Below are positions 1,762 through 19,056 of a DNA stretch of 19,056 nucleotides, one piece after another (position 1 is the first letter of the stretch; each line of letters begins with the position of its first letter). The DNA comes from a virus. Its lineage: Duplodnaviria; Heunggongvirae; Uroviricota; Caudoviricetes. The notes beneath the pieces were generated by a model. That model saw only the letters and a list, made by a program, of their open reading frames with translations, had not been told where the DNA came from and ran no database searches. Both the position numbers and the translations under genes were made by a program. The stretch spans positions 1 through 19,056 of IMG/VR virus record IMGVR_UViG_2713896899_000019. One strand, 5' to 3'.

Positions 1762-1764
1762 TCT

Positions 1765-2007: not shown

Positions 2008-2011
2008 TCCT

Positions 2012-2732: not shown

Positions 2733-2828
2733 TCAGTAATTCATTAAAAATTTATATTCAATCAGCGTACCGAAAACGACGGACGCCAGCAGCAGACTAA
2801 ACAGTATGGACAGGAGGAATGACTTCAT
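2733..2828 (-). CDS. Small hydrophobic peptide (31 aa), putative single-pass membrane protein
   Basis: Hand-translated as MKSFLLSILFSLLLASVVFGTLIEYKFLMNY. Its start overlaps the upstream stop as TGATG at 2826-2830. Confidence 0.3.
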   Translation of the reverse strand: MKSFLLSILFSLLLASVVFGTLIEYKFLMNY

Positions 2829-3049: not shown

Positions 3050-3388
3050 TTACATGTTCCCCATAACGGTATCGCTCATGTCGTTGACCATGCTCTGCCA
3101 GATTTCTTTGCCGCTTTGCGTCAGCTCGTTTCCACGAACGCATTTGCTTAACAGTTGAATACCAACGGCTTCCCATTGGGGGTAATTTTCTTTGATAGCC
3201 TTCAGAGCATAACCATCGATTAAGTCCCTGATGCCTTTAACCCCACCGATGATGTTTACTCGTATGGATTGCCCATTGACATTAATCAGGAAATGACCAC
3301 CGCTGGTGGCGGATATGTGGTTGTGCAGTGCCGCCGCATACTGATTTGCCAGCGCATTGAGGCGGAAATTTTGTGTAATGAGTGACAT
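3050..3388 (-). CDS. Hypothetical phage protein (112 aa)
   Basis: ORF whose start overlaps the upstream stop as TAATG at 3386-3390. Confidence 0.55.
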   Translation of the reverse strand: MSLITQNFRLNALANQYAAALHNHISATSGGHFLINVNGQSIRVNIIGGVKGIRDLIDGYALKAIKENYPQWEAVGIQLLSKCVRGNELTQSGKEIWQSMVNDMSDTVMGNM

Positions 3389-4134: not shown

Positions 4135-4145
4135 TTTCGTCCACC

Positions 4146-4724
4146 TCAGTGCATAACCGGCATGTCTGGCATACCGTCTTTCTGAATCAGTTCAATGAAG
4201 CTGTCATGTAGTATGTTGAGTCCCTCCCGGCCCATCGCTGACAGCCTGAATCCGCATTTCTCGTCAGTTACAACCATGTCCTGATACATACGCAGCGCCA
4301 TCTGCTGGCCAACGTCAGGCCCGTATTTTTCAATTGCGCCCGCCTCGATATGGTTAGCGAGCGCGAAGCGCTCAGACCATGGATAAATGCTGATTGAACC
4401 GGGTTTTCCTGTGTATACAACGGCTGTATCTACGCCGCCCTTGTCATTCTGAACATCGACAGTCCCGTTCTTCTCCTGCTCCTCAGCAATGAACACGGCG
4501 ACAACAAGCCAGCGCCATAGGATGATTTGTTTTTCAATACACGGCATAAACCAGCCGCTTTCAATCCCTTCCATAATGCAAGCTATCAGATCGAGCCCGT
4601 CCGGAATTCGTTTGTCATAGTTACCGTTGTCGATCTGGCGAACCGCAGTTGAATAACCAATAATTCGATTACCAAAACGGATGCCTGTTAATGTAGGTTC
4701 AGGGGTAATGGTTGAATTAATCAT
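4146..4724 (-). CDS. Hypothetical phage protein (192 aa)
   Basis: ORF track gives a TTG start at 4727; the adjacent ATG at 4724-4722 with AAGGAGAG about 6 nt upstream is the more likely start. Confidence 0.6.
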   Translation of the reverse strand: MINSTITPEPTLTGIRFGNRIIGYSTAVRQIDNGNYDKRIPDGLDLIACIMEGIESGWFMPCIEKQIILWRWLVVAVFIAEEQEKNGTVDVQNDKGGVDTAVVYTGKPGSISIYPWSERFALANHIEAGAIEKYGPDVGQQMALRMYQDMVVTDEKCGFRLSAMGREGLNILHDSFIELIQKDGMPDMPVMH

Positions 4725-4757
4725 CAATACTCTCCTTTTGGTTTGAAGGTTTATTGT

Positions 4758-4979
4758 TCATTTCCGGTCCTTAACTTTGCTGTATCGTTCATGGCTCATT
4801 ACTTCCCAGTTCTGGCCGCCGTCTCGGGACAGCAGCCGCCAGCGGCGATTAACCCTCAGACTCAGGTTTCCGGAGCCGTGCATACGACAGGGATGAATTC
4901 GTCTGGCTCTGAACTGGCGGAGAACACGGACCGCCTGCAGGTGCACCCACTCAGGAATTCGTATTGCTGTTAATGTCAC
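4758..4979 (-). CDS. Small arginine-rich protein (73 aa)
   Basis: GTG start preceded by GGAGG. High arginine content (…RVLRQFRARRIHPCRMHG…RVNRRWRLLSRDGG…). Overlaps the 3' end of the upstream 69-aa gene by 29 nt in another frame. Confidence 0.35.
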   Translation of the reverse strand: MTLTAIRIPEWVHLQAVRVLRQFRARRIHPCRMHGSGNLSLRVNRRWRLLSRDGGQNWEVMSHERYSKVKDRK

Positions 4980-5160
4980 CGATTTCCTCCAGATCAGGAG
5001 CGATTACCTGATATCCCGCTTTCTTTGCTATCCATAAGAAGGTATCCATGCTGGCAATCATCTCGTTATTGTGAACTTTACGGGTATTTATTACCTGACC
5101 ATTTTCAATCGTCATAATGATCTGTACTTTTTCGTGTATAAGAGGGGATAAATCAGACAT
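4951..5160 (-). CDS. Hypothetical phage protein (69 aa)
   Basis: Start overlaps the upstream stop as TGATG at 5158-5162. Confidence 0.45.
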   Translation of the reverse strand: MSDLSPLIHEKVQIIMTIENGQVINTRKVHNNEMIASMDTFLWIAKKAGYQVIAPDLEEIGDINSNTNS

Positions 5161-5519
5161 CAGTTAATTCCTCCACTGATATATTTCTCTTTTACGTAGT
5201 CAACAACCTCTTTTAAAAGGCCGTCCACTATCAGTTTCCCTGATTCAGTGAGATATTCCGTGTGTTGATTAATACCGATGGCATTCTGGTATGCGGTACG
5301 GATTGTTGCTTCTCCTTCCGTCCGTCCATATTCAACACGGGTAAGACCCTCAAATCGTAATAACAACTGGTTCATGAACTGTTCAGTTATTTCTATCGTT
5401 GTTATTTCTCCGTCCGGGAGGTCAACGACGAGCAGATTACTACCTGTTTTACGTTGCATCCGCCGGAGTGCCGCTGTTACCATGCGGCGACGATCTTTAT
5501 AAATGGTTGTACATGCCAT
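5160..5519 (-). CDS. Hypothetical phage protein (119 aa)
   Basis: ORF in operon orientation; no family recognised. Confidence 0.55.
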   Translation of the reverse strand: MACTTIYKDRRRMVTAALRRMQRKTGSNLLVVDLPDGEITTIEITEQFMNQLLLRFEGLTRVEYGRTEGEATIRTAYQNAIGINQHTEYLTESGKLIVDGLLKEVVDYVKEKYISGGIN

Positions 5520-5522
5520 TTG

Positions 5523-5621
5523 TTATTTCCCGTATGCTTTTCTGAGAAACAGTATTGCAACTGACCAGTATCCTGCATTAGCCATTAATAATGCGGTTTT
5601 ATAAGCGTTTCTATTTTTCAT
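5523..5621 (-). CDS. Small hydrophobic peptide (32 aa)
   Basis: Hand-translated as MKNRNAYKTALLMANAGYWSVAILFLRKAYGK. Stop lies 3 nt before the start of the 119-aa gene. Weak RBS. Confidence 0.25.
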   Translation of the reverse strand: MKNRNAYKTALLMANAGYWSVAILFLRKAYGK

Positions 5622-5703
5622 GCATCACCATTATTTTCTGGTTGTGGAAATCCACGACCAGAGGCCGTCATGTTTTTATGTGTGATTTTTTACTGAATGT
5701 TCT

Positions 5704-5895
5704 TTATTCGTTGCGTAGTGTTTCTATATACTCGTAAGCCATTTCACAGGTCTTATTCATGGAGCGAATGAGACAGCATAAATAATCGTCTGTCTCTCCT
5801 TGGTCGGGCGAATTCTTAAATATAAATTCAAGCATTGATGTATTCTCTTTTATTTGTGCCGCCACTTCCTCAAGAATATTTAATGGAGTTATCAT
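5704..5895 (-). CDS. Small acidic protein (63 aa)
   Basis: ORF in an AT-rich segment. Acidic composition (…EEVAAQIKE…DQGETDDY…EMAYEYIETLRNE). Start overlaps the upstream stop (5892-5895). Confidence 0.45.
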   Translation of the reverse strand: MITPLNILEEVAAQIKENTSMLEFIFKNSPDQGETDDYLCCLIRSMNKTCEMAYEYIETLRNE

Positions 5896-6116
5896 GTTCT
5901 TTGCTCCTTAAATGCATCGCATGCGCTTCTGGCGTATTGTTGTGCCAGTAAAAAGATATCATCCGAAAGTTCATCACATTCTTCATCACCGGAAGCCGAA
6001 ATGATTAACCCCGCTTCAAGCAGTACGGCAATGTGATGAAAAGCTGTCTCCGGTTCGTTGGTAAGGCCTTTGAACATTTTCATCTTATGCTTCCTCCTGA
6101 TTTTGTTTATAAGCAT
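5892..6116 (-). CDS. Small acidic protein (74 aa; start may be an internal Met)
   Basis: ORF in an AT-rich segment with an acidic stretch (…ASGDEECDELSDDIF…). Overlaps the 3' end of the 138-aa gene. Confidence 0.4.
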   Translation of the reverse strand: MLINKIRRKHKMKMFKGLTNEPETAFHHIAVLLEAGLIISASGDEECDELSDDIFLLAQQYARSACDAFKEQRT

Positions 6117-6501
6117 CAGTCAATAACAACATTGGATCACAGCCAAGAACATTAGCCAGAGGGATAAGCATGCTGATGGTTGGTTCGTACTCTCCGCTTT
6201 CCCACTGGATGATGATTTCTTCATCGAGGTCGAGCAGTCTGGCGAGTTCGGCTGTTGTTAAGCCGCAGTCTTCGCGTTGGGTACGAAGACGGTTGTTGAT
6301 TGCAGAATTTTTGTTCTGTAAAAGCATTGCTGACGATAGCTTTCTGGATATGCTATTTGTCATATCCCATGCCAGTCCTGCGCATGACTCTATATCGCTA
6401 GAGAGCGTAGCATCTGGTGTTGCTTTTGCTATTAGTGTAATGAGGCTGCCGAGGTTTTTCAGTTCTTCGAGACAGTCAAGAGTTGTAGCTTTATTGATCA
6501 T
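6085..6501 (-). CDS. HTH (XRE-type) domain protein with an unrecognised N-terminal domain; first gene of the leftward early operon
   Basis: 138 aa. C-terminal segment GLTTAELARLLDLDEEIIIQWESGEYEPTISMLIPLANVLGCDP is a typical XRE-family helix-turn-helix. It sits directly downstream of the putative OL/PL. Confidence 0.55.
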   Translation of the reverse strand: MINKATTLDCLEELKNLGSLITLIAKATPDATLSSDIESCAGLAWDMTNSISRKLSSAMLLQNKNSAINNRLRTQREDCGLTTAELARLLDLDEEIIIQWESGEYEPTISMLIPLANVLGCDPMLLLTDAYKQNQEEA

Positions 6502-6604
6502 GAGATGATACCTCAGTTACGAACTTTGCTTCATGGTAACTAAGGTATCAAGGTGTGGCAAGTGATTTTTGATACTTTGGTTTCTTTTTGTGTTTTGTGT
6601 CTGG
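6502..6604 (-). promoter_or_regulatory. Putative OL/PL region (leftward early promoter and operator)
   Basis: Candidate minus-strand promoter: -35 TTGCCA (plus 6556-6561), 17-nt spacer, -10 TACCAT (plus 6533-6538). The 12-mer TTGATACTTTGG (6569-6580) is identical to the 12-mer at the PR -35 (7308-7319). GATAC/GTATC pentamers occur at 6507, 6545 and 6571. Confidence 0.35.
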
Positions 6605-7261
6605 TCAGAAAATATCCCACCTGGCATCAACCACAACACCTACTATTTCGCAATCATTGTCCATTTCTATGATTGGATATTGTGGATTAAGGGGCTTTAG
6701 AAACGCCTTTCCCATTTCAGAAATATATTTTTTGAATGTTGCTTCATTGGTAGATTTTTTTCTGGCGATGACGTAACACCCTGAAAAAACTTCTTTATCT
6801 GGGTTGACAAGGATCGACATTCCTTCAGGAAATGTTATTCCTACGGGCGAAGTCATTGAGTCTCCGTGCACTTCCAGCCAGAACCCCCTCTCTCCAGCGT
6901 ATTTTACAGAATGCCTCCAATTATCCTGATCATACATGTTGTAGTCATCACCAGCAGTTGCGAATAATCCTGCCTGAACCCAGTTAATTACAGGGTAAGA
7001 GTGTGCTGTGTCTCTCTGTGGGCAGCTCTTAACATTATTTTCCCAATGCTTATCTTTTTCATCTCCGTTCTGAAGCCACTGCGGTGAACACTGCAGTGCA
7101 GCTGCGACTTTAAAAAGGGTGTCACCGTTGAAACTTTTTGTAAGGCCTTGCTCGGCTTTACTGATTGCAACTCTGGTGACCCCTGCTTTTTTAGCCAACG
7201 CATCTTGCGTTAACCCAGCTTTTTGTCGTGCGTTGATGAGGCGTTCACCTAAAGATTTCAT
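6605..7261 (-). CDS. cI: CI-like prophage repressor (HTH-XRE N-terminal domain, LexA/S24-like C-terminal autopeptidase domain)
   Basis: The ORF track extends to 7336, but the in-frame ATG at 7261-7259 (MKSLGERLINARQKAGLTQDALAKKAGVTRVAISKAEQG…) is preceded by AAGGAGA. The C-terminus has GDSM and a downstream lysine, as in S24 peptidases. It is divergent from the cro-like gene. Confidence 0.85.
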   Translation of the reverse strand: MKSLGERLINARQKAGLTQDALAKKAGVTRVAISKAEQGLTKSFNGDTLFKVAAALQCSPQWLQNGDEKDKHWENNVKSCPQRDTAHSYPVINWVQAGLFATAGDDYNMYDQDNWRHSVKYAGERGFWLEVHGDSMTSPVGITFPEGMSILVNPDKEVFSGCYVIARKKSTNEATFKKYISEMGKAFLKPLNPQYPIIEMDNDCEIVGVVVDARWDIF

Positions 7262-7372
7262 TTTTCTTCTCCTTTCATGGCTGCTGATACTAAAGTAACA
7301 GAATTTCTTGATACTTTGGATTCTCGCGTTTAACATTCTTGGATAACAGAGTATCCGGTGTGAGGCTAAAGA
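7262..7372. promoter_or_regulatory. Immunity-region control region (putative OR with PR rightward and PRM leftward)
   Basis: Rightward promoter: -35 TTGATA (7308-7313), 17-nt spacer, -10 TAACAT (7331-7336), about 37 nt upstream of the cro-like ATG. GATAC-containing motifs at 7286 and 7310, and the palindrome GGATAacagagTATCC at 7341-7356. A leftward -10-like TAGTAT lies upstream of cI. Confidence 0.45.
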
Positions 7373-7624
7373 ATGACCCTTTATGAAATATTAAAAACTC
7401 AATTTAAGACCAATGCCGCTATTGGCCGTAGGTTCCCAAAGAAAGGAAGGCCTCGTGGTAGTCAGGGAGTTGGAAAGTGGAAAACACGGGGCGTTCCGGA
7501 GGATGTTGCCATTCTCTGCCATCTGGATCCGAACATTCCATATACACATCCAAGCTTAGCGCGCACGGGAGAGGTGAAGGGCTTGTATGTCCCAGAATTA
7601 CGTTCAGACAGAGATGCCATCTAG
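7373..7624 (+). CDS. cro: Cro-like small DNA-binding regulator
   Basis: 83-aa ORF divergent from cI, with GAGG 8 nt upstream of the ATG. The cro call rests on position and size; no motif was aligned. Confidence 0.55.
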   Translation: MTLYEILKTQFKTNAAIGRRFPKKGRPRGSQGVGKWKTRGVPEDVAILCHLDPNIPYTHPSLARTGEVKGLYVPELRSDRDAI

Positions 7625-7880
7625 GTACTGCCAGGCAGACGAAGAGTGGATTCAGCAGCAGTTACAGGGGCTGCCTCCGTCACTGAGACGGAAGGTCGCC
7701 CTGAAATATGCGGAGGTATACGAAATCACTTTTGACGCTGAGCCTGTTTCATTCCGCAAGGAGAACAGAGCAAGGCACGAAGCAAACACAAGGCTCCGCT
7801 TGTTTGTGAGAAATCAGGGCAGAGCTTTACAGGGGTATACAACTCAGCCGCCCCTGGCAGGAACGCAATCGCGCTCCTGA
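7587..7880 (+). CDS. Hypothetical protein in the cII position (97 aa; start uncertain, alternative ATG at 7614)
   Basis: ORF immediately after cro, overlapping its 3' end. No family recognised. Confidence 0.4.
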   Translation: MSQNYVQTEMPSRYCQADEEWIQQQLQGLPPSLRRKVALKYAEVYEITFDAEPVSFRKENRARHEANTRLRLFVRNQGRALQGYTTQPPLAGTQSRS

Positions 7881-7936
7881 TTGGTACCGGGCTTAAAGGT
7901 GTCCGGTGGCTGAATCCCAAATCTCATTGCATTTGT

Positions 7937-8112
7937 GTACTAGCTAAGGAGTACATGCAAAATTCAGTGAGAGGAGGGGAGGGGGAGGAGTGCTCGTGTG
8001 TTAGTGCGAAGCACTGGAACAGGCTTTTCCAACAGACGGGTACATAGGTTAGGTAGATCTCGATCTAAAGGGGGATACCTCTGAAAAAACGGCTGTACCA
8101 TAAAGCTAGTAC
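7937..8112. repeat. Inverted-repeat-bracketed non-coding element (19-bp arms) containing a polypurine G-rich tract
   Basis: Left arm GTACTAGCT-aagga-GTACA (7937-7955); right arm TGTAC-cataa-AGCTAGTAC (8094-8112), whose reverse complement is GTACTAGCT-ttatg-GTACA. Inside are a 22-nt pure-purine tract (7969-7990, GGGGAGGGGGAGG core) and an AGTGCT…AGCACT hairpin (7989-8015). Confidence 0.5.
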
Positions 8113-8129
8113 AAAATGGATAAAAAAGT

Positions 8130-8498
8130 ATGAGTGAAGACCTGAAGCAAAATTTAATCGCTCTCCTGGAAGAGCAATTCATTCGCTCCGATGACAAAGT
8201 CGTTTTCGATTATGTGATGCAGAAAAAAATCAAGTCTCAGGGATACCATCTGCAACGCAATTTCAGCATCAGCATTAGCGGTGGTCGTAAAGGGTTTATT
8301 GATTGCCTGGTTACATCATCAGACGGCCAGCAGTGTGCCATTGAGGTCGATAAGAAGTCTCCCCGCAACCGTTCGTTGATGAAGCTGGCTCAGCTACCTG
8401 AGGGGATGTCAGGCTTTGTCCTGCTCAGGGATGGTAAGCACCCTCTTCGATATAGCGAGAACGGAATTGACGTTATTCGTGCGACGAAATTTAAGTGA
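8130..8498 (+). CDS. Small PD-(D/E)xK-like nuclease-fold protein (possibly VRR-NUC-like)
   Basis: 122-aa ORF. The segment GGRKGFIDCLVTSSDGQQCAIEVDKK resembles a restriction-endonuclease-fold core (hydrophobic strand ending in D, then E-x-D/K-K). Weak RBS. It sits just upstream of the replication genes. Confidence 0.4.
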   Translation: MSEDLKQNLIALLEEQFIRSDDKVVFDYVMQKKIKSQGYHLQRNFSISISGGRKGFIDCLVTSSDGQQCAIEVDKKSPRNRSLMKLAQLPEGMSGFVLLRDGKHPLRYSENGIDVIRATKFK

Positions 8499-8609
8499 GT
8501 TGATTCGGAAAGGGGCTGGCAGCCTTTGGGGAGACCACCAGCCATGTGAGGAGGAATCCATGAAAACCACATCACAAAATTATTATCTCATCACTGCGGG
8601 GACAGCACA

Positions 8610-10268
8610 ATGCAGCTGACAATCACGCCGAATTTTGCACAGGAGCGAGCGCTAAACATGTTGCGCCGTGACTGGAAGGCAAACGACACCTTCATGGTTT
8701 ACTCGCCAACAGGTAGCGGTAAAACGGGTCTGGCAGCCTTCATCGTTGCTGGTTTTGTCAGCCGTGGTATGCGTGTTCTGTTCTGTGTTCCGTACACCAT
8801 CCTGATTGGTCAGACGGCTAATCGGTTCGTGCAGTATGGTTTACCTGGAGATGAAATCGGTTATATCTGGGCGGATCACCCGAACTACGATCCGGACCGG
8901 AAAATTCAGATTGCCAGCGCTGACACGCTTATTCGTCGTGTTTTTCCTGAAAATATCGATCTGCTGATTATCGACGAAGCGCACCTGCGTAAAAAACGCA
9001 TCCTGAAGGATATCGAACGTCTGCGCGGCAAAGGCGTAAAGGTGATTGGCCTGTCGGGTACTCCGTTTTCTCCGTTCCTGGGCAAATACTATGACCGACT
9101 GATTAAGCCGACCACCATCGGCGAGTTAATCCAGCGTGGCGATCTGAGTAAATACGAATTTTACGCGCCAACTAAGCCGGATCTGAAAGGTGTTAAAACC
9201 ACATCTTCGCTTGAGTACGGCCGCGATTACAACGAAACACAGCTGGCTGAAATCATGTGCGGCTCTACGCTGGTGGGCGACATCGTACAGAACTGGCTGG
9301 AGAATGGTCGGGATCTACCTACCATCGCTTTCTGCGTCAACGTAGCCCACGCCAATTACCTGACAATCCAGTTTAACCTCGCAGGTGTTAACGCTGAGGT
9401 AATGACCGCAGACACTCCGGTAGATGAGCGCCAGACCATCATTCACCGCTTTGAAACTGGTGCAACGAAAATCATCGTTAGTGTGGGCGTTCTGGTGGCC
9501 GGCTTTGATAGTGACGTTCGTTGCATCATCTACGCCAGGCCAACAAAAAGCGAAATTCGCTGGTTGCAGGCACTCGGGCGTGGGCTGCGCACCGCACCGG
9601 GTAAAGAGTCCTGCCTTATCTTCGATCACAGCGGCACCGTGCACCGTTTGGGTTATCCGGATTCAATCGAGTACGACGATCTTCCCGGTAAGTCTGACGG
9701 CATGGAGGAAAGCGCGCGCCGCGCAGTTGAGGAACGGGCCGAAAAACTGCCACATGAATGCCCTCAATGCCACTACATGAAGCCAGCTGGCGTCTATGTT
9801 TGCCCTAAATGTGGACACAAGCCGCTGCGAGGTGAAGATGTTGATACTGACACTAGCCGCAAACTTAATAAGCTGGGTAAAAATCAGCATCAGTCGACGA
9901 AGACAGAGAAACAGTCCTGGTGGAGTCAGATCAAATTTTATCAGCGCCAGCGTGCTTCGCTGGGGCGTCCAGTCAGTGATGGATGGTGTGCTCACACTTT
10001 CAGGGAGAAATTCGGTGAATGGCCTGATGGGTTGAGCAGTTTCCCGATGGAAATAAGCCCAGAAGTAAGTAACTACATCAAACACAAGCTGATTCGGTTT
10101 GCCAAAGGCCGTCAGCGGACGCAGAGAACTATAGAAAAATTGCAGGCAACGATTCCTCTGTCTCAGGAACGAGGTGAGCGAAGCGAGATGCCAATAGGCA
10201 CTGAGGCTTGGCGCATCATGCAAGCAAAGCAACAACTCCAGAAAAATATAAACAGTTTGAGTCAGTAA
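8610..10268 (+). CDS. Replicative SF2 (DEAD/DEAH-box) helicase with C-terminal zinc ribbon
   Basis: 552 aa. Walker A SPTGSGKT, DEAH box LLIIDEAH, motif VI QALGRGLR, and zinc ribbon CPQCHYMKPAGVYVCPKCGH. Confidence 0.85.
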   Translation: MQLTITPNFAQERALNMLRRDWKANDTFMVYSPTGSGKTGLAAFIVAGFVSRGMRVLFCVPYTILIGQTANRFVQYGLPGDEIGYIWADHPNYDPDRKIQIASADTLIRRVFPENIDLLIIDEAHLRKKRILKDIERLRGKGVKVIGLSGTPFSPFLGKYYDRLIKPTTIGELIQRGDLSKYEFYAPTKPDLKGVKTTSSLEYGRDYNETQLAEIMCGSTLVGDIVQNWLENGRDLPTIAFCVNVAHANYLTIQFNLAGVNAEVMTADTPVDERQTIIHRFETGATKIIVSVGVLVAGFDSDVRCIIYARPTKSEIRWLQALGRGLRTAPGKESCLIFDHSGTVHRLGYPDSIEYDDLPGKSDGMEESARRAVEERAEKLPHECPQCHYMKPAGVYVCPKCGHKPLRGEDVDTDTSRKLNKLGKNQHQSTKTEKQSWWSQIKFYQRQRASLGRPVSDGWCAHTFREKFGEWPDGLSSFPMEISPEVSNYIKHKLIRFAKGRQRTQRTIEKLQATIPLSQERGERSEMPIGTEAWRIMQAKQQLQKNINSLSQ

Positions 10269-10269
10269 G

Positions 10270-11238
10270 ATGAAAACAGCAGCTGCAGCGAAAGGCCGCT
10301 GGCCTGAAATATTAGAGCACTTCGGCTTGCCGCCGATAACAGGAAAAAATCACTTCAAGGGTGAATGCCCGGTATGCGGTGCACGTGGCAAGTTCCGAAT
10401 TGATGACCGCGACGGTGCAGGAACGTGGATCTGTGTATGTGGTAGTGGCGATGGTATGAAACTTGTCACCCTGACACAGGCGAAGCCATTTAACGAGATT
10501 TGTACCGAAATAGACCGCCTGATCGGTAATGATTACCAACGGGTTAAAATCCCGGTAACCAGCAGCGCCACCAGCTTACGCAAACGGGTATTGAGCAAGT
10601 TTTCAAAACTGGAGGCACTGCGTGGTACATCCGGCGCAGCGTATCTTAATTCTCGTGGAATATTCAGTCTTCCTGCTGAGGCGATCCGGTTCAATGCCAG
10701 GCAGAGACACAACGGGAGTGTGTTCCAGTCTCTTTATTCACTTGCTACGGACGATAAAGGGGAGTTGTGCTATCTGCACCAGACTCTGCTTGATGGTGAT
10801 AAAAAAGCAGATATCGGTAGCAGTGCAAAGCGCCTCAAATCCCTGCAGGAAGATAACTATTTGGATCACGCTCGTTCTGTAGCTATCCGCATGTTTCCTG
10901 TTGCTAGCACTCTGGGTATCGCCGAAGGCATCGAAACAGCGCTGTCAGCGCACCAGATTTATAACGTGAACACTTGGGCAACCATTAACAGCGGCTTTAT
11001 GAAAAAGTTCCGCGTACCAGCTGGTGTTCTGCACCTGATTATTTTTGCCGACCGTGACGAGAACAGCGCCACCGGGCTGGCTGCGGCTTGCGAATGTGCT
11101 CATGCCAATCTGATGGCAAAGAATGACCTGCAGCGCGTGAGCGTGTACTGGCCGGATCACGATGATTTCAACAATATGCTCATGAACGGTGATCAGGTTC
11201 GAGAGCTGGTTTTCCATAAGAAAAAGGCGGTTGCGTAA
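10270..11238 (+). CDS. DNA primase (zinc-binding N-terminus plus Toprim domain)
   Basis: 322 aa. Cys cluster GECPVCGARGKF…WICVCGSGDG; Toprim-like acidic motifs GIAEGIETALS and LIIFADRDEN. Start is 2 nt after the helicase stop. Confidence 0.8.
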   Translation: MKTAAAAKGRWPEILEHFGLPPITGKNHFKGECPVCGARGKFRIDDRDGAGTWICVCGSGDGMKLVTLTQAKPFNEICTEIDRLIGNDYQRVKIPVTSSATSLRKRVLSKFSKLEALRGTSGAAYLNSRGIFSLPAEAIRFNARQRHNGSVFQSLYSLATDDKGELCYLHQTLLDGDKKADIGSSAKRLKSLQEDNYLDHARSVAIRMFPVASTLGIAEGIETALSAHQIYNVNTWATINSGFMKKFRVPAGVLHLIIFADRDENSATGLAAACECAHANLMAKNDLQRVSVYWPDHDDFNNMLMNGDQVRELVFHKKKAVA

Positions 11239-12095
11239 TGCGTACTGATAACAACGAACATAAAGCACTATTCACCATCCCGACGGCAGCGTACAGCTCC
11301 GCCCTCGCAAACATCAAGCCCCTGCCAGAGCAACGGAGAATCACCGGGCATAAGCAGACTGATGCTTATCTTTGGGTGCTGGAGGTTATCCGTCTGAACG
11401 AACCCGCACATCTGGATGCTGCTGAGGCTGCGCTGGTGAAAATTAAAATTTCCCCAAAAGAGGCCCAGGAACGCTATTCGCGTTATCTGCTGGCGAATGG
11501 TGGTGATCCTTTCCAGATTGCTTTCGGTACCATCGGCATGGATAACCCGGCACAGGCAATCAGGATCGCCCGGGAGAATATCAAAAAAGCAACATCAGTC
11601 AGGGCTACGTTTGGTAGCTATGAAGCAGCACTCGAAGATGTGGAAGCCGAGCGAGTGATCAAGTCTTCCCAGAAATTTATCGACGATCATCTCTGGGGCT
11701 GGACTGCAGCCGAGAAGACAGCGGGCAGAATTGATGGCATCCGTATGAATGAAATTGATGATCAGCGTCGTGCATATGTTGATGGCTATCGTGATGTACT
11801 GCCAGAGCCTCATACATTGTCAGACGTAGTTCGTGAGTTTGTTTACTGGGACTGGCTCTACAGTGTTCGCCACACTGCGTCTAAAGAACAGGGCGATGAG
11901 TATGGTTACTCTGAGCATCACGAATCGGTATATGACCGCGAGCGCTACCTTGAAAAATTGCTGATGACCATCAAACCGGTGACACGGGCTGAAGCCGTGG
12001 AGGTGTGTCGTTGGTTTTTGGCAAGCGGAAAGGGCGAATATATGAAAGACAATGGCGCGGCTGTTATTCTTAATCTGGTTGGGGAGTGTGAATAA
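11238..12095 (+). CDS. Hypothetical phage protein (285 aa) in the nin-region position
   Basis: ORF coupled to its neighbours by TAATG overlaps at both ends; no family recognised. Confidence 0.6.
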   Translation: MRTDNNEHKALFTIPTAAYSSALANIKPLPEQRRITGHKQTDAYLWVLEVIRLNEPAHLDAAEAALVKIKISPKEAQERYSRYLLANGGDPFQIAFGTIGMDNPAQAIRIARENIKKATSVRATFGSYEAALEDVEAERVIKSSQKFIDDHLWGWTAAEKTAGRIDGIRMNEIDDQRRAYVDGYRDVLPEPHTLSDVVREFVYWDWLYSVRHTASKEQGDEYGYSEHHESVYDRERYLEKLLMTIKPVTRAEAVEVCRWFLASGKGEYMKDNGAAVILNLVGECE

Positions 12096-12925
12096 TGAAG
12101 CTTGAGGCATCGCTAAAATACTTCAGTCCTCAGGGAATGTATATCGGCGACGATGTGAAAGGAACCTCTCCGGAACGTCTTACAGGCACCGATGTTATGG
12201 CGGCTATTGGTACCACCAGCAATCGTGAGCGGTTTGGCTTGGCGGCCTTCTTCGGGAAGGCCGGTATCAGCAAGACTGATGAGCAGATGGCAGTCCAAGC
12301 GCTGGCGCGTCACGCGATGGAAATTGCACCGAAGAATGTGCGTAAAGCAGCTGGTGGTGAATTTGGCTGGTGTATGCTGGTACTGGCGCAGTTTGCTTTT
12401 GCTGAGTATTCCCGATCGGCAGACACCAGCGTAACATGCCATAGTTGCAGTGGTACCGGACTAACACCCCGTAAGCAGGTCATTCGTAAGGTTTCATACC
12501 CATGGGGTAAAGCACCATATTGGGCCAGTCGCTCCCGTGCTGTTCGACCGTCAGACTGGGAGAAATGGACAGAGGTAACGGAAGTTGTACCAGTCGTTTG
12601 CGATGTATGTAAAGGGAAGGGAGTGATAAGTGCCAGGTGTCGTTGTGGTGGAAAGGGGGAGGTACTCGACCGCAAAGCTACAAGCGAGCGTGGTGCACCA
12701 GTGTTTAAAATCTGCGAACGTTGCAGCGGAAATGGATTTTCCACGGTACCGTCTACCACAGTATATAAAGTTGTACTGAAGCGGATACCCGAGCTACATG
12801 TCAGGACATGGACGCGTAATTGGAAGCCGTTTCTTGATTCTCTGGTTGACATTTGCCACCAGGAAGAGCGTAAGGCCGATATTGCTTTTCAGAATGTGAC
12901 AAGTTTTGGTGATGATGTGAACTAA
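12095..12925 (+). CDS. Putative late-gene antiterminator Q-like protein with four CxxCxGxG zinc-finger repeats
   Basis: 276 aa. Sits directly upstream of the candidate late promoter/terminator and lysis genes. Repeats CHSCSGTG, CDVCKGKG, CRCGGKG and CERCSGNG are DnaJ-type zinc-finger spacing. The Q call is from position plus zinc-binding character, not an alignment. Confidence 0.5.
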   Translation: MKLEASLKYFSPQGMYIGDDVKGTSPERLTGTDVMAAIGTTSNRERFGLAAFFGKAGISKTDEQMAVQALARHAMEIAPKNVRKAAGGEFGWCMLVLAQFAFAEYSRSADTSVTCHSCSGTGLTPRKQVIRKVSYPWGKAPYWASRSRAVRPSDWEKWTEVTEVVPVVCDVCKGKGVISARCRCGGKGEVLDRKATSERGAPVFKICERCSGNGFSTVPSTTVYKVVLKRIPELHVRTWTRNWKPFLDSLVDICHQEERKADIAFQNVTSFGDDVN

Positions 12926-12950
12926 GCTTAGGGTTTTTGCGACATTACAC

Positions 12951-12999
12951 TTGATTTTGTCCGAATCTGTCATGTATGCTTTTAAGCATGTGGAATAAT
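12951..12999 (+). promoter_or_regulatory. Candidate late promoter PR' with promoter-proximal -10-like pause element (qut-like region)
   Basis: -35 TTGATT (12951-12956), 18-nt spacer, -10 TATGCT (12975-12980). A -10-like AATAAT lies at 12994-12999 in the initial transcribed region, as in sigma70-dependent pause sites used by Q proteins. Confidence 0.4.
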
Positions 13000-13018
13000 G
13001 CGTAAATGATTTTGATAG

Positions 13019-13041
13019 AAGCCCCTTTCGGGGCTTTTATC
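13019..13041 (+). terminator. Intrinsic terminator (candidate tR', ending a short 6S-like leader RNA)
   Basis: Stem AAGCCCC / GGGGCTT with loop TTTC (13019-13036), followed by TTTTATCATTT. The T-tract is on the plus strand only. It overlaps the stop codon of the minus-strand 310-aa gene. Confidence 0.6.
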
Positions 13042-13972
13042 ATTTCAGCCCTTTTAAAAAGCGTTCGAAATTATGGAATTCAAGTTCATCCGCTGTCGAT
13101 GAGTATTTTATTTTGTTTGCGATGGGACGCAGATTTTTTTTAGTTAGGAATTTACTGGCTTCATGTTTCAGTTTTTTTAATCGCTTGATTCGTTCTTCGA
13201 TTGAACTGGCAATTTTGGCAACATTAGAAATTTCTGGGCTTGGGGCTGTTTGTAGATCAATACACTGAATTTTTTTTAGATCTTCTTTGAGCGCAACAAA
13301 AAAATCACGAAGATTGTTTTCTGGTAAAAGAACATGACTAAATGATACTTTTCCTATGTAGAATTCACTTATTGCCTCTCCAGACTCGCGCATGTGTTCA
13401 TTCATTGCGAACAGAATTGTTTTGGTATTCTTATCAGTTTCCACTTCAGAAAGGGTTACAAGGCCTGTCTGGCTCTTGGTCAAAAAACGAATTTCTGTAG
13501 CACCAAGTCTTCCGGAGTAATTGGAATTTTTACTATTTTCGATGGTAGAAGATAGATAATCTATTGTGGGTTTGATATTTCGTATCGTTTCAATATTTTT
13601 TTGCCACTCTTCACATTTACTTTTTGCGGTGCTAATAATTTCCCGATTGGTTTCGAGTTGCATAAATTTATTGAAACTAAGAACGTTTTCACCAAATTCC
13701 ACACCAAATTCGTTTTTACCACATTTATTTCCGATGTTGGTTTCAATGCCACTAGATGTTTTTACAATATAACCCATTTGATGTGGTTGGTTGCAACCAG
13801 TTAGACCACAGTGGATTTCTTCTTTAAATTTGTAGTAACCAATTATCTCCTCAAGTTGTTGAACTCCTTTGTCTATAGTGGTGACAAAGTTTGGTCTGGA
13901 TATAATTTCCTCCCAGTTTTCAAGTTTCTCGATGCCGTTTTCAGTTCTGAGAAAAATCATGAATCGCTCCAT
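13040..13972 (-). CDS. AT-rich hypothetical protein (310 aa; likely start at the ATG at 13960), moron oriented against late transcription
   Basis: Long ORF rich in K/N/I/E. Hand counts of two 60-nt lines give about 32-33% G+C against about 50% in flanking phage genes. GGAG lies 8 nt upstream of the internal ATG at 13960. No family recognised. Confidence 0.6.
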   Translation of the reverse strand: MERFMIFLRTENGIEKLENWEEIISRPNFVTTIDKGVQQLEEIIGYYKFKEEIHCGLTGCNQPHQMGYIVKTSSGIETNIGNKCGKNEFGVEFGENVLSFNKFMQLETNREIISTAKSKCEEWQKNIETIRNIKPTIDYLSSTIENSKNSNYSGRLGATEIRFLTKSQTGLVTLSEVETDKNTKTILFAMNEHMRESGEAISEFYIGKVSFSHVLLPENNLRDFFVALKEDLKKIQCIDLQTAPSPEISNVAKIASSIEERIKRLKKLKHEASKFLTKKNLRPIANKIKYSSTADELEFHNFERFLKGLK

Positions 13973-14074
13973 TTGAAAGTGGACCGTTTATTTTATCGGC
14001 ATAAAAATGAGAACACCACAAGTTATTTTATTACCGAATACTTGGTAAAGATGGGTAACTTCGCCACACAGCTT

Positions 14075-14098
14075 AAACCCGCCGCCGTGCGGTTTTTT
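14075..14098 (+). terminator. Possible weak intrinsic terminator
   Basis: Short GC stem CCGC/GCGG (14079-14092) followed by TTTTTT (14093-14098). The stem is only about 4 bp, so this is tentative. Confidence 0.3.
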
Positions 14099-14369
14099 GT
14101 CTGCACAACAGGTAAGAGCATTCTCCCTTATGGGGCTTGGCTTAAATGCACTGAGTGCTCTTATCGTTGTGCTGAATTAAGCGAATACCGGAAGCAGAAC
14201 CGGATCACCAAATGCGTACAGGCGTCATCGCCGCCCAGCAACAGCACAACCCAAACTGAGCCGTAGCCACTGGCTGTCCTGAATTCATCAGTGATAGTTA
14301 CGCTGCGGCCTTCTTTTCCCCATTCCCAATATAAGAACTACGCAATCCGTTACTTGCGGAGGCGTTGCT

Positions 14370-14585
14370 ATGAAATCCATGGACAAAATTTCAACGGGCA
14401 TTGCCTACGGCACCTCCGCAGGCAGTGCTGGCTACTGGTTTTTACAGTGGCTTGATCAGGTCAGTCCGTCACAGTGGGCTGCGATTGGTGTACTGGGGAG
14501 TCTGGTTCTGGGCTTCCTGACTTATCTGACAAATCTGTACTTCAAAATCAGAGAAGACAAGCGTAAGGCTGCACGGGGAGAGTAA
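14370..14585 (+). CDS. S: Class II holin, phage 21 S21-like pinholin (dual start Met1/Met4)
   Basis: 71 aa, [71 protein letters not shown]. Two transmembrane segments and a charged C-terminus; closely matches my recollection of S21. Confidence 0.85.
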
Positions 14586-14589
14586 TTCA

Positions 14590-14940
14590 ATGACTCAAAA
14601 CTATGAACTGATTGTGAAAGGGATCCGCAATTTTGAGAATAAAGTTACGGTAACTTTAGCGTTACGGGACAAAAAACGCTTTGACGGTGAAATTTTTGAC
14701 CTGGACATCTCGCTGGACCGTGTTGAAGGTGCCGCGCTGGAGTTTTATGAGGCAGCAGCCAGAAGGGGCATCAGACAGGTCTTCCTGGATGTTGCTGCCG
14801 GGTTATGTGAAGGGGATGAGCAGTCGCCGGAAAAGCGCCCCGTAATTTTAGATGCGCAGAATGTGTGGATAACCCACAAAGGAAAGCTACCAGGAAGAAT
14901 TACTGGTTCTCTGAAGACTCCTCCAGAATCACAACCTTAA
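14590..14940 (+). CDS. Hypothetical protein (116 aa) lying between holin and endolysin
   Basis: ORF with GGAGAG upstream of the ATG, starting 4 nt after the holin stop. No family recognised. Confidence 0.5.
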   Translation: MTQNYELIVKGIRNFENKVTVTLALRDKKRFDGEIFDLDISLDRVEGAALEFYEAAARRGIRQVFLDVAAGLCEGDEQSPEKRPVILDAQNVWITHKGKLPGRITGSLKTPPESQP

Positions 14941-15003
14941 GTCACTGACCGGAACAGATAAACCTGTCCGTGGGCAGAAACCGATAAATCCTGATAAATA
15001 TCC

Positions 15004-15537
15004 ATGAACGCAAAAATCAGATACGGCCTGTCGGCTGCCGTTCTGGCACTGATTGCCGTCGGTGCGCCCGCTCCTGATATTCTCGACCAGTTTCTGGATG
15101 AAAAAGAAGGTAACCACACAACGGCATACCGCGATGGGTCCGGCATCTGGACCATCTGTCGGGGTGCCACGATGGTGGATGGAAAACCCGTTTTTCCCGG
15201 TATGAAACTGTCGAAGGAAAAATGCGACCAGGTCAACGCCATTGAGCGTGATAAGGCGCTGGCATGGGTGGAGCGCAATATTAAAGTACCACTGACCGAA
15301 CCACAAAAAGCGGGTATCGCGTCATTTTGTCCCTATAACATTGGCCCCGGTAAGTGTTTTCCGTCGACGTTTTATAAGCGACTGAATGCCGGTGATCGTA
15401 AAGGTGCATGCGAGGCGATTCGCTGGTGGATAAAAGATGGTGGGCGCGATTGCCGCATACGTTCAAATAACTGCTATGGACAGGTTATTCGTCGTGACCA
15501 GGAAAGCGCATTAGCCTGTTGGGGGATAGATCAGTGA
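15004..15537 (+). CDS. R: SAR endolysin (lysozyme, T4-lysozyme-like fold, R21-type)
   Basis: 177 aa. N-terminal signal-anchor-release segment [22 protein letters not shown], then the catalytic-region pattern [20 protein letters not shown]. Confidence 0.85.
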
Positions 15538-15998
15538 GCAGAGTCGCCGCGATTATTTATGCTCTGGTTATCTGCATCATCGTCTGCCTGTCGTGGGCGG
15601 TCAATCATTACCGTGATAACGCCATCGCCTACAAAGAACAGCGTGATAAAAAAGTCAGTGAGCTGAAGCAGGCGATCGCCACCATCGCTGACATGCAGCA
15701 GCGTCAGCGTGATGTTGCTGCTCTCGATGCAAAGTACTCGAGAGAATTAGCCAATGCGAAAGCTGAAAATGAAACTCTGCGCGCTGATGTTGCCGCTGGT
15801 CGTCGTCGGTTGCACATCAAAGCAGTCTGTCAGTCAGTGCGTGAAGCCACCACCGCCTCCGGCGTGGATAATGCAACCAGCCCCCGACTGGAAGACACCG
15901 CTGAACGGGATTATTTCACCCTCAGAGAGCGGCTGATGACGATGCAGATGCAACTGGAAGGGGCACAGGAGTATATCCGCACTCAGTGCATTAAGTAG
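15534..15998 (+). CDS. Rz: Rz i-spanin
   Basis: GTG start overlapping the endolysin stop (GTGA). N-terminal transmembrane segment [25 protein letters not shown] followed by a coiled-coil-like region; strongly resembles lambda Rz. The ORF track gives an alternative TTG start at 15519. Confidence 0.8.
15754..15936 (+). CDS. Rz1: Rz1 o-spanin lipoprotein (embedded in Rz, +1 frame)
   Basis: 60 aa. Signal peptide with lipobox LVVVGC, proline-rich PPPPPAW; lies entirely within Rz, as in lambda. Confidence 0.75.
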
Positions 15999-16040
15999 CC
16001 TTTTTATCGTGGTAAACATTTCGCAGGGTATGAGGTATTT

Positions 16041-16391
16041 ATGCCATCACTAATTCCACGTGCCTGCCGTAAGCGTGGATGTGCAGGTACAACCACAGAC
16101 AGTTCTGGTTACTGCGATAAACATCGTGGCGAAGGATGGGTACAGCATCAACGCGGACTGAGTCGCCACCAGCGTGGCTATGGCTCGAAATGGGATGCCA
16201 TACGTGCGCGCATACTGAAGCGTGATAATCATCTGTGTCAGAACTGCCTGCGCAATGGGAGAGCCGTTGAAGCCAGAACTGTGGACCACATCATTCCGAA
16301 AGCTCATGGTGGCACGGATGCAGACAGTAACCTGCAGAGTCTGTGCTGGCCCTGTCATAAAGCAAAAACAGCGCGCGAACGCATCAATTGA
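16041..16391 (+). CDS. HNH endonuclease (terminase-associated)
   Basis: 116 aa. HNH motif DHIIPKAHGGTDADSNLQSLCWPCHKAKT with flanking Cys pairs. Positioned immediately upstream of terS, as in HK97-type cos phages. Confidence 0.85.
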   Translation: MPSLIPRACRKRGCAGTTTDSSGYCDKHRGEGWVQHQRGLSRHQRGYGSKWDAIRARILKRDNHLCQNCLRNGRAVEARTVDHIIPKAHGGTDADSNLQSLCWPCHKAKTARERIN

Positions 16392-16414
16392 TAACAGTTC
16401 CCATCTGTAGGGGA

Positions 16415-16480
16415 GGGGCGGGTCAAATCTCTGCAGCCCTGGCTGCTCAGTACCGCCGCCTGACCCTTCCTCACATCGCC
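16415..16480. other. Candidate cos/packaging recognition region
   Basis: Intergenic stretch between HNH and terS. GC-rich imperfect inverted repeat GAGGGGCGGGTCA … TGACCCTTCCTC with GGGTCA/TGACCC arms, about 37 bp apart. Assignment is positional inference. Confidence 0.3.
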
Positions 16481-16539
16481 GCAGGTTCGAAAACTTTTTT
16501 TTGGAAATGTGATTAAACGATTGATAGGTAAAACCGATT

Positions 16540-17022
16540 ATGCCAGGACCCCCGAAAACCCCGCCACGCCTGCATTTGATACGAGGCAACCCCTCAAAAC
16601 GCCCCGTTAAAGACCCCAAAAAAACCGCTAAAAAGGATGAAAAAGGTCTCCCTAAAATTCCGCAACATTTAGGGGCACAGGGGAAGTACTGGTTCAGGCG
16701 AATGGCGGAAGAATTGAATGCGGAAGGGATCATTTCTCAGCTTGATGCGCGTGCACTCGAGTTACTGGTGGAAGCCTACACCGAATACCGGCATCACTGC
16801 GAAACACTCGATGTTGAGGGTTATACCTACCGCACGGAAACGCAGAATGGCGATGTGATGATCAAGGCACATCCGGCTGCGGCGATGAAGGCGGATGCCT
16901 GGAAGCGGATCCGGGCGATGCTTGCAGAGTTTGGTATGTCACCGGCAAGCCGGGCTAAAGTAAATACCGCCGGACCGGATGATGTTGATCCACTGGCAGA
17001 GCTTTTAAAAGCGAGAGACTGA
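16540..17022 (+). CDS. terS: Terminase small subunit (P27-family-like)
   Basis: 160 aa, immediately upstream of terL with overlapping stop/start. Sequence pattern matches my recollection of P27-type small terminases. Confidence 0.75.
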   Translation: MPGPPKTPPRLHLIRGNPSKRPVKDPKKTAKKDEKGLPKIPQHLGAQGKYWFRRMAEELNAEGIISQLDARALELLVEAYTEYRHHCETLDVEGYTYRTETQNGDVMIKAHPAAAMKADAWKRIRAMLAEFGMSPASRAKVNTAGPDDVDPLAELLKARD

Positions 17023-18779
17023 TGGCAAAAGTGGCTGACGGGATCCGTTACGCCGAACGTGTTGTTGCAGGAGAAATTGTTGCTGGCGAATTTGTCCGTC
17101 TGGCCTGCCAGCGTTTTCTTGATGATCTGAAGTACGGCGAAGAGCGGGGGATTTATTTCAGTGAACCCCGTGCACAGCACATCCTGAATTTCTACAAATT
17201 TGTGCCCCATGTGAAAGGGGCGCTGGCAGGCCAGCCCATTGAGTTGATGGACTGGCATGTATTTATCCTCATTAATATTTTTGGTTTTGTCATTCCGCTG
17301 GTGAATGAAGAGACCGGGGAAGTTGTCATGCGCAGCGATGGCAGCGGACGCCCGGTGATGGTGCGCCGGTTCCGGACGGCGTACAACGAAGTCGCCCGTA
17401 AAAACGCAAAATCAACCCTGTCATCGGGTATCGGCCTGTATATGACGGGGGCAGATGGTGAAGGCGGTGCTGAGGTGTATTCAGCCGCAACCACGCGTGA
17501 CCAGGCCAGAATCGTGTTTGAAGACGCCAAAAATATGGTCAGAAAAGCCCGGTCGACACTCGGGCGGTTGTTTGATTTCAACAAGCTGGCGATTTACCAG
17601 GAGCAGAGCGCATCAAAATTTGAACCGCTTTCCTCGGATGCAAACAACCTGGATGGTCTGAACATCCACTGCGCCATTATTGATGAGCTGCATGCACATA
17701 AAACCCGTGACGTGTGGGACGTTCTGGAAACGGCAACCGGTGCCCGTCTGCAGTCCCTGTTATTTGGCATCACCACGGCTGGCTTTAACAAGGAAGGGAT
17801 TTGTTACGAGCAACGCGATTACGCCATCAAGGTATTGCGAGGCTATAACAGCGACGTGGAGGGCGCGGTAAAAGACGACTCCTACTTTGCAATTATTTAC
17901 ACGCTCGATGAGGGAGATGATCCGTTTGATGAAACGGTCTGGCAGAAAGCGAATCCCGGCCTGGGCATCTGTAAACGCTGGGATGATCTGCGTCGTCTGG
18001 CGAAAAAAGCGAAGGAACAGGTCTCTGCGCGGGTGAATTTTTTCACGAAACACATGAATGTGTGGGTCACTGCCGAATCTGCCTGGATGGACATGATTAA
18101 GTGGGAGAAGTGCGAATACATTGCTCCACAGCATGAGCTGAAAACATATCCCATGTGGGTCGGCGTCGACCTTGCTCATAAGATTGATATCTGTGCGGCG
18201 GCAAAGCTCTGGCGAACCGATAACGGACATGTTCATGCCGATTTTAAATTCTGGCTTCCGGAAGGACGGCTGGAACGATGCTCGCGGCAGCAGGCAGAAC
18301 TTTACCGGAAGTGGGCAGAGATGGGGAAACTCATCCTGACGGATGGTGATGTTATCTATCATGCTCAGATAAAAAGTGACTTACTGGAATGGATTGGTGG
18401 TGAAAACCTGAGGGAACTGGGATTTGACCCGTGGAGTGCAATGCAGTTCAGTCTGGCGCTGGCTGAAGAAGGGATACCGCTGGTGGAAGTTCCGCAGACG
18501 GTCCGCAATCTGTCAGAGGCCATGAAGGAAACGGAATCACTGGTCTATGCCGGGCGTTTCCATCACAGCAATCATCCGGTCATGAACTGGATGATGTCTA
18601 ACGTTACGGTAAAACCGGACAAAAACGACAACATCTTCCCGAATAAATCCACGCCGGAAGCCAAAATCGACGGCCCTGTTGCGATGTTTACAGCAATGAG
18701 CCGGATGCTGGTCAATGGCGGTGAACCGGAGCCGGATCTGTCTGAACATCTGATTAGTGTTGGTATCCGCTCGCTTTAA
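17022..18779 (+). CDS. terL: Terminase large subunit
   Basis: 585 aa, located after terS and before the portal start. Size and synteny are typical of HK97-like TerL; no motif was aligned. Confidence 0.85.
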
Positions 18780-18790
18780 CCGAGGACATT

Positions 18791-18973
18791 ATGTTTCTGA
18801 TAATTCTCGCGCCACTGGTGGGCGTGCTGGGTGCGCTTTTGCTGGCGTATGGTGCCTGGCTGATTTATCCCCCGGCGGGTTTTGTTGTTGCCGGGGCGCT
18901 GTGCCTGTTCTGGTCGTGGCTGGTGGCGCGATATCTCGACCGTACACAGCCGTCTGTCGGCGGAGGTAAATAG
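18791..18973 (+). CDS. Small hydrophobic protein (60 aa) between terL and portal
   Basis: ORF with GAGGA upstream of the ATG; two hydrophobic segments; stop overlaps the GTG of the next gene. Confidence 0.4.
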
Positions 18974-19056
18974 TGTTCTTTTCGGGATTATTTCAACGAA
19001 AAAGTGACGCGCCGGTGACCACGCCAGCAGAGCTGGCGGATGCTATCGGGCTGTCA
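18973..19056 (+). CDS. Portal protein, 5' end only (truncated by window edge)
   Basis: GTG at 18973-18975 preceded by GGAGG. Reads [28 protein letters not shown] to the window end. Portal assignment is by synteny after terL. Confidence 0.4.
   Translation, partial: MFFSGLFQRKSDAPVTTPAELADAIGLS

Follow-up and report, generated by a model that had tools for sequence, protein, structure and literature searches.

The 19,056-nucleotide (nt) stretch analyzed here, positions 1 to 19,056 of the Caudoviricetes virus record IMGVR_UViG_2713896899_000019 in IMG/VR (hereafter, the window), carries between its early/replication genes and its lysis genes a gene for a 276-residue protein, referred to as window Q (Table 1). 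We conclude with high confidence that this gene encodes a phage late-gene antiterminator of the lambda-Q family (PF03589), in the long-arm form known from phi80 Q. The conclusion is based on homology, on the architecture of the protein, on a conserved cassette (12951–13045) downstream of the gene, and on covariation between the protein and this cassette. A sequence-only reading of the window had noticed at this position a protein larger than lambda Q with four CxxCxGxG repeats of the DnaJ type, and had offered two explanations: a Q-family antiterminator with an unusual zinc module, or a different zinc-finger protein that had taken over the slot. The protein is indeed the larger of the two (276 versus 207 residues in lambda Q). 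By its sequence, it is an ordinary lambda-Q family member of a common long form (phi80-type). The first explanation was therefore right about the family, as seen from PF03589, the alignment with lambda Q, and the structural model, and wrong about "unusual," because the form with four zinc knuckles is common; the second is contradicted by full-length homology to lambda Q and by DnaJ matches that stay below their cut-offs.

The Pfam scan matched window Q to PF03589 (Antitermination protein Q) in two stretches, with 172.9 bits against a cut-off of 26.7 (E = 1.5e-51), and PF03589 was the sole Pfam family above threshold. The sequence-only reading had proposed an alignment with the known Q families, and this comparison selects the lambda family; the phage-21 family (PF06530) and the phage-82 family (PF06323) gave no match in the Pfam scan at E values up to 0.01. 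PHROG 127 ("anti-termination protein Q-like") matches the protein end to end (E = 5e-98). The only real matches in PDB were lambda Q structures (7ubm, E = 1.9e-35 by phmmer), with residues 1–123 aligned to lambda Q 1–126 and residues 180–268 to lambda Q 116–205, and the two proteins can be aligned from residue 1 to the C terminus with the exception of one insertion. When an AlphaFold2 (AF2) model of window Q (mean predicted local distance difference test [pLDDT] score, 74) was searched with Foldseek, the best eight matches were all lambda Q chains (7ubn_Q, E = 9e-11, template modeling [TM] score 0.75). Cys182, Cys184, Cys207, and Cys210 align to Cys118, Cys121, Cys144, and Cys147 of lambda Q, respectively. 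Genes 98 to 99% identical to that of window Q carry the annotation "antitermination protein" in phage phi467 and in Escherichia coli prophages, and proteins 99% identical to it are annotated "prophage antitermination protein." A further Pfam label, PF27659, appears in precomputed annotations of these proteins (P0001 and others).

The cysteine-rich domain of DnaJ/Hsp40 (PF00684) contains four CxxCxGxG knuckles per domain and holds zinc via Cys4 sites. Window Q shares such knuckles and gives weak DnaJ profile and fold matches, as might be expected if a DnaJ-related zinc-finger protein, a chaperone or a thiol-redox protein, had replaced Q and lacked antitermination activity. The likeness, however, is confined to the level of the motif. 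The DnaJ profiles cover residues 167–215 only and lie far under their curated cut-offs (PF00684, 24.2 versus 32.7 bits; TIGR02349, 20.6 versus 377.2 bits), no J domain or DnaJ C-terminal substrate-binding domain was found in window Q by the Pfam and NCBIfam scans, and DnaJA2 appears in the Foldseek list at E = 3.5 only. The knuckles lie within a Q body, the cysteine-free N- and C-terminal parts are also homologous to lambda Q, and the gene is followed by a cognate Q-binding cassette that covaries with the protein. The zinc pairing is nested in DnaJ and probably tandem in window Q. The full-length homology to lambda Q effectively refutes a replacement by a DnaJ relative, and we regard it as extremely improbable.

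Three of the four repeats in window Q are exact CxxCxGxG motifs: CHSCSGTG at residue 115 (nt 12437), CDVCKGKG at residue 169 (nt 12599), and CERCSGNG at residue 207 (nt 12713). The motif at residue 182 is CRCGGKG (CxCxGxG), one residue short, and the earlier count of four was in this respect slightly too high. Close homologues all have this CxC knuckle, and it occurs commonly in the family as a whole. The occurrence of CxxCxGxG is far beyond chance, with at least one copy in just 0.2% of the shuffled versions of window Q. Lambda Q also carries two CxxCxGxG motifs (CRDCHGTG and CGRCKGVG), which the earlier note had missed; therefore, only two of the four motifs in window Q are extra. The N-terminal 60 residues are identical to those of lambda Q at 25 positions, including GTDVMAA and the invariant Gly39, and the following half-body is modeled as helices (residues 60–77 and 80–107, pLDDT 86–93). 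An extra module of approximately 65 residues is inserted at the base of the arm relative to lambda Q. It consists of knuckle 1 (Cys115 and Cys118), a long β-hairpin (AF2 strands 123–134 and 157–168), and knuckle 2 (Cys169 and Cys172). The arm homologue then contains knuckle 3 (Cys182 and Cys184) and knuckle 4 (Cys207 and Cys210), with a helix (residues 193–199) between them.

Knuckle spacings were compared across family representatives at 50% identity. The spacing between knuckles 2 and 3 is 13 in all of them, and that between knuckles 3 and 4 is 25 to 26 (25 in window Q and 26 in lambda Q), the same in every short form, whereas knuckles 1 and 2 lie 14 to 58 residues apart. The flank of knuckle 3, ARCRxC.G.G..D...T, is also common to the short forms. 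From the spacings and the modeled structure, the extra knuckles (Cys115/Cys118 and Cys169/Cys172) most likely bind a second zinc ion and form an additional, tandem zinc ribbon. The four knuckles could instead be nested as in DnaJ (1 with 4, and 2 with 3), which would make the arm a single long V-shaped domain, but the short forms, in which the zinc site is solved, match knuckles 3 and 4 in both flank (ARCRxC...D...T) and spacing (25/26), and if the knuckles were nested, loss of the first two would leave the others without partners. Moreover, the length-variable segment from knuckle 1 to knuckle 2 is predicted to pair with itself. We therefore consider nested pairing unlikely and prefer the tandem arrangement. 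The extra module is the region best kept between window Q and phi80 Q, with 39 of 65 residues identical (60%) versus 14 of 61 for the C-terminal part. Because it is kept despite the different DNA specificities of the two proteins, a functional role of the module is favored. We found no description of a second zinc module in the literature searched, a scope to which Guo and Roberts (2004) did not belong, and nothing specific there on the four-knuckle form, QuuQ/YdfT, or the Q of Stx2f phages; a preprint on the Pas small RNA names PF03589 solely as a neighboring gene.

The protein, the family, and the long architecture are already known and present in databases, and the type is represented by the classical phage phi80. 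Precomputed PF03589 and PF00684 labels are found on hundreds of relatives with 270 to 278 residues, from Escherichia, Salmonella, Enterobacter, Citrobacter, and Klebsiella. An exhaustive search of 50% representatives gave 233 clusters matching window Q, and about half of the 61 full-length-like representatives have at least four CxnC knuckles, about a third having two. The four knuckles are kept in 64 genomic loci at 34 to 84% identity, spanning Citrobacter, Serratia, Photorhabdus, Xenorhabdus, Providencia, Yersinia, Pantoea, and Erwinia. Of 250 phage records, 133 match window Q as a single segment covering at least 80% of the protein; these include phi80, HK225, mEp460, SPN3UB, SE1, and Stx2c phages. 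The Q proteins of lambda, P22, and HK620 are short forms.

The claim that the gene lies immediately upstream of a PR'-like promoter and terminator agrees with both the conservation of the cassette in related loci and the stability of the hairpin (13018–13037 with its T-tract; −26.3 kcal/mol, z = −4.6). The cassette grammar stands directly after Q in approximately 52 of the 64 loci (Enterobacterales), and its layout matches that of lambda PR'. The late promoter was located by comparison with these related loci, where the −35 after long-form Q genes is TTGAYT or TTGCAT at the same place (TTGACT in lambda). The spacer that follows contains TTGCATAAA-N-TGGCG or TTGTCCGAA-N-TGTC in related loci, and the annotated phi80 Q-binding site, TCGCGGA, occupies the same position as the window element. 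Taken together, the −35 and spacer pattern has a single occurrence in the window, where 0.01 matches are expected. The −10 is TATGCT in the clade of the window, TATTCT, TAATTT, or TAGATT in other clades, and TAAATT in lambda. The pause element has the form NANNNT followed by GG(G) in related loci (AACGAT and GGG in lambda; AACGCT and GGG in phi80). In 48 of 52 loci, as in lambda and in the window (12957 to 12984), the pause element begins 27 nt after the beginning of the binding element.

Nearly all related loci have a strong terminator, of lineage-specific sequence, at an equivalent position 50 to 65 nt after the pause element, and it is present also in loci that have no convergent gene. An alignment of the region after the Q stop codon in the window, phi467, E. 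coli F719, an STEC prophage (from Shiga toxin-producing E. coli), and Salmonella Fels-1 showed conservation of TTGAYT, the spacer, and TATGCT, with the terminator at the same place and different in sequence in each lineage. Since no convergent gene follows in the STEC locus, the terminator there serves the plus strand. A minority of long-form Q loci (L006, L023, L024, L035, L044, L049, L057, and L063) have no cassette directly after the stop codon, and three of these eight have a terminator approximately 30 nt after Q instead.

The leader RNA of the cassette tends to form a small hairpin, the 5' arm of which overlaps the 3' half of the pause element (L003–L069 and lambda). Examples are AGTGGCG..CGCCACT, TAATCA..TGATTA, and, in lambda, CAACGA..TCGTTG (L001, 886–911). 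The leaders were folded one by one against shuffles, which gave a mean minimum free energy z score of −1.27 over 50 unique leaders; the hairpin of the window leader (12984–13002) is weak (GCAT/ATGC, z = −0.6). A MAFFT alignment of 39 leaders, submitted to RNAalifold, yielded no consensus structure even for the terminators, the alignment not being a structural one.

In the lambda complex, the Q body reads positions 1–4 of the 13-bp Q-binding element, and the tip of the zinc-ribbon arm (residues 114–152), which also makes contact with sigma region 4, reads positions 11–13 (Yin et al. 2022, PMC9388147). In the related loci, the left part of the element covaries with the helix-turn-helix of the protein. 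The class TTGCATAAA, with the left part CATA, pairs with the protein motif [TH]QSSWSRNWKP in 30 loci, and the class TTGTCC[GA]AA (TTGTCCGAA), with the left part TCCG or TCCA, pairs with H[VILP]RTW[TS]RNWKP in 24 loci including the window; there is no exception in either class (54 loci in all). Lambda pairs TTGAATAAA with TQPTWSRTVKP. The right part of the element (TG, approximately positions 12–13, in a numbering of 1–13 that is itself deduced) is constant, and so are knuckles 3 and 4 of the arm, which fits the division of labor between body and arm in the lambda structure. The Q gene of phage vB_EcoS-611R1 (L070) is approximately 98% identical to that of the window up to nt ~12694, whereas its C-terminal 60 residues and its downstream element are both of the other class, with the breakpoint at ~12694–12740 (codon ~200–212). 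On this sequence comparison, the protein is a natural chimera, in which the specificity part and the element have been swapped together. The covariation independently supports the assignment of the spacer element as the putative Q site.

The minus-strand gene at 13040–13972 ends at the hairpin 13018–13045, which probably acts bidirectionally and also terminates this convergent gene. It may be asked whether the hairpin ends the convergent gene and the early operon only, with the real late promoter near 14010–14100, ahead of the lambda-like region. A second plus-strand terminator-like site at 14081–14098 is followed by a sequence 93 to 97% identical to the region downstream of lambda tR', and 14047–14064 resembles the lambda pause region at 15 of 18 positions. 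This resemblance, however, has an E value of 3.6, and upstream of it there is no convincing −35 or −10. The cassette after Q is kept with Q in dozens of loci, among them L004, which has no convergent gene and has tRNAs and late genes on the same strand, and its binding element covaries with the Q helix-turn-helix. In addition, in phi467 and F719 the region 13973–14098 accompanies the minus-strand gene. A downstream location of the real late promoter is thus very unlikely, and a lambda-like promoter near 14010–14066 was rejected on the grounds of the E value, the lack of hexamers, and the movement of the region with the minus-strand gene. The 15 of 18 match itself, between AAAGATGGGTAACTTCGC in the window and AACGATGGGTTAATTCGC in the lambda PR' pause region, is probably due to chance or a relic.

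Guo and Roberts reportedly studied phi80 Q experimentally as an antiterminator in 2004 (J Bacteriol 186:3599). This protein (gp17, "late transcription antitermination protein," 269 residues) belongs to the same family and has the same long architecture as window Q. Its knuckles lie at residues 115, 169, 182, and 207, positions identical to those in window Q, with the CxC third knuckle also shared, and the hairpin sequence KVSYPWGK.PYW...SRAVRPSDWE.W is common to the two proteins. The grammar downstream is likewise similar: the phi80 record annotates the pR' −35, Q-binding site, −10, and terminator in a window-like arrangement, and a pause element also occurs. Overall, the two proteins are only approximately 41% identical. 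They show no sequence relationship in the C-terminal part, which reads the DNA, and the binding element is TCGCGGA in phi80 versus TGTCCGA in the window. Lambda Q (PDB 4MO1 and 7UBJ–7UBN) shares with window Q a homologous N-terminal torus segment, a four-helix body with a helix-turn-helix, and a zinc-ribbon arm, as well as the cassette layout. It differs in having no equivalent of residues 114–178 (knuckles 1 and 2 and the hairpin), in a CxxC rather than CxC first arm knuckle, and in a leader of 194 nt versus approximately 55 to 60 nt in the window. YdfT (QuuQ) of the E. coli K-12 Qin prophage, a 250-residue "putative antitermination protein Q," is 37% identical to window Q over the full length and has four knuckles (113, 148, 161, and 186), and its gene is followed by a cassette that includes AACGATGGG and a terminator. 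Its loop between knuckles 1 and 2 is 35 residues long versus 54 in window Q, its third knuckle is CxxC, its C-terminal motif is different, and it sits in a cryptic prophage.

Here, we propose a mechanism for window Q based on these comparisons. In lambda Q, the N-terminal 60 residues are disordered in the free protein and, together with NusA, refold to form a torus at the RNA exit channel; the body is made of four helices (61–113 and 153–207) that include the helix-turn-helix, and the arm base (110–112, 117, and 122–126) touches the β' zinc-binding domain (PMC9388147). By homology with lambda, RNA polymerase would start constitutively at the promoter 12951–12956/~12975–12980 and pause after approximately 15 to 20 nt, when sigma-70 re-binds the −10-like AAGCAT (12984–12989). 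Window Q would then bind TTGTCCGAATCTGTC in the spacer, its C-terminal helix-turn-helix reading the class-specific left part and its zinc-ribbon arm (Cys182/Cys184/Cys207/Cys210) reading the conserved TG at the right. After transfer of Q onto the paused polymerase, the N-terminal 60 residues would refold, with NusA in the case of lambda, and the resulting ring would narrow the RNA exit channel. The modified polymerase may ignore the terminator at 13018–13045 and later ones, including 14081–14098, and would reach the holin (14370), lysis, and head genes; in phi467, the read-through would also reach stx2f. The long β-hairpin of the extra zinc ribbon is predicted to project from the base of the arm, the surface that touches the β' zinc-binding domain in lambda. 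Our best guess, by analogy, is that the extra module enlarges or alters this contact, or stiffens the arm. Antitermination activity, the zinc stoichiometry, and the zinc topology are likewise predictions.

Several points weigh against this interpretation. The −10 of the window is only 3 nt from the pause element, versus 6 to 7 nt in lambda and phi80, and because of this gap and the 18-nt spacer the exact promoter register is uncertain. A consensus promoter scan missed the late promoter (score 8/12). Lambda has a −35-like element beside the pause element, which is bound by sigma region 4, and such an element is not evident in the window. The start site, the pause, and the read-through for window Q are deduced by analogy, and the tandem zinc topology is deduced from spacing, homology, and secondary structure. 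Finally, the wider family shows hypervariability in the hairpin that separates knuckles 1 and 2, which disfavors a single conserved partner for its tip.

Table 1 Features of the Q gene, its product, and the downstream cassette (window positions)
Feature	Position	Strand	Description
Q gene	12095–12925	+	Long-form (phi80-type) lambda-Q family antiterminator, 276 residues, ATG start
Residues 1–60	12095–12274	+	N-terminal segment homologous to the torus-forming region of lambda Q; function predicted
Residues 61–113	12275–12433	+	First half of helical body, aligned to lambda Q 61–113
Residues 114–178	12434–12628	+	Extra zinc module, defined by the gap in the lambda alignment and AF2 secondary structure
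Residues 179–215	12629–12739	+	Homologue of the lambda Q arm (zinc ribbon)
Residues 216–276	12740–12922	+	Second half of body, aligned to lambda Q 153–205; helix-turn-helix setting DNA specificity, motif HVRTWTRNWKP
Late promoter (PR'-like) −35	12951–12956	+	TTGATT; matches the annotated phi80 pR' −35
Q-binding element	12957–12971	+	TTGTCCGAATCTGTC in promoter spacer; predicted, position as lambda TTGAATAAAATTGGG
Probable −10	12975–12980	+	TATGCT, 18-nt spacer; hexamer and start site predicted
Sigma-dependent pause element	12984–12993	+	AAGCAT (12984–12989) and GTGG; −10-like, predicted
Intrinsic terminator (tR'-like)	13018–13045	+	Hairpin GAAGCCCC-TTTC-GGGGCTTT and T-tract; from folding

The coupling of the gene to the replication operon, as claimed earlier, is apparent from the junction with the preceding ORF (open reading frame, 11238–12095). 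The ATG of Q overlaps the stop codon of this ORF in TAATG and is preceded by GGAG, and the overlap indicates that the two are translationally coupled. Genes for a DEAD-box helicase, a protein resembling Toprim/primase, and a conserved PHROG 6204 protein of unknown function lie 5' of Q. The early right operon (8610–12095) has the order helicase, P4-like Toprim primase, PHROG 6204 protein, and then Q, and has no nin region. The PHROG 6204 protein directly before Q has 285 residues and is also found in Fels-1.

Downstream of the cassette, the antisense gene at 13040–13972 encodes a conserved 310-residue protein of unknown function (PHROG 7003, E = 7e-111) and is split into two ORFs in phi467. It lies between the late terminator and the lysis genes, so that Q-modified transcription must run antisense through it. 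The second plus-strand terminator-like hairpin (14081–14098) lies at a mosaic junction: upstream, 13973–14098 is also present in phi467 and F719, and downstream 14093–14122 and 14154–14312 are 93 to 97% identical to the lambda DNA between tR' and S. Despite this lambda-like DNA before it, the holin (14370–14585, 71 residues) is of class II (phage-21-like). The window is an stx-less close relative of the Stx2f-converting phage phi467 (L002), with 98% identity over Q and its surroundings. In phi467, stx2fAB and tRNAs occupy the interval from the antisense gene to the holin. Q and its cassette thus precede stx2f there and probably control its expression, and the window-type Q with its cassette is very probably the switch controlling Stx2f production in phi467.

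The main value of these results is a clean annotation, that of a standard late switch dependent on Q, whose promoter, binding, pause, and terminator elements are placed to the base. The pairing of protein motif and element (QSSW versus VRTW; CATA versus TCCG), together with the chimera of vB_EcoS-611R1, provides a testable specificity code for the lambda-Q family. The second zinc ribbon is located on the surface through which lambda Q contacts the polymerase. It is a tentative and rather doubtful idea that this ribbon gives phi80-type Q an additional or different grip on polymerase, sigma, or NusA. If it does, the need for a loading cofactor (for example, independence of NusA) or the processivity could differ from those of lambda Q, and the Q-lambda family would have two mechanistically distinct loading modes.

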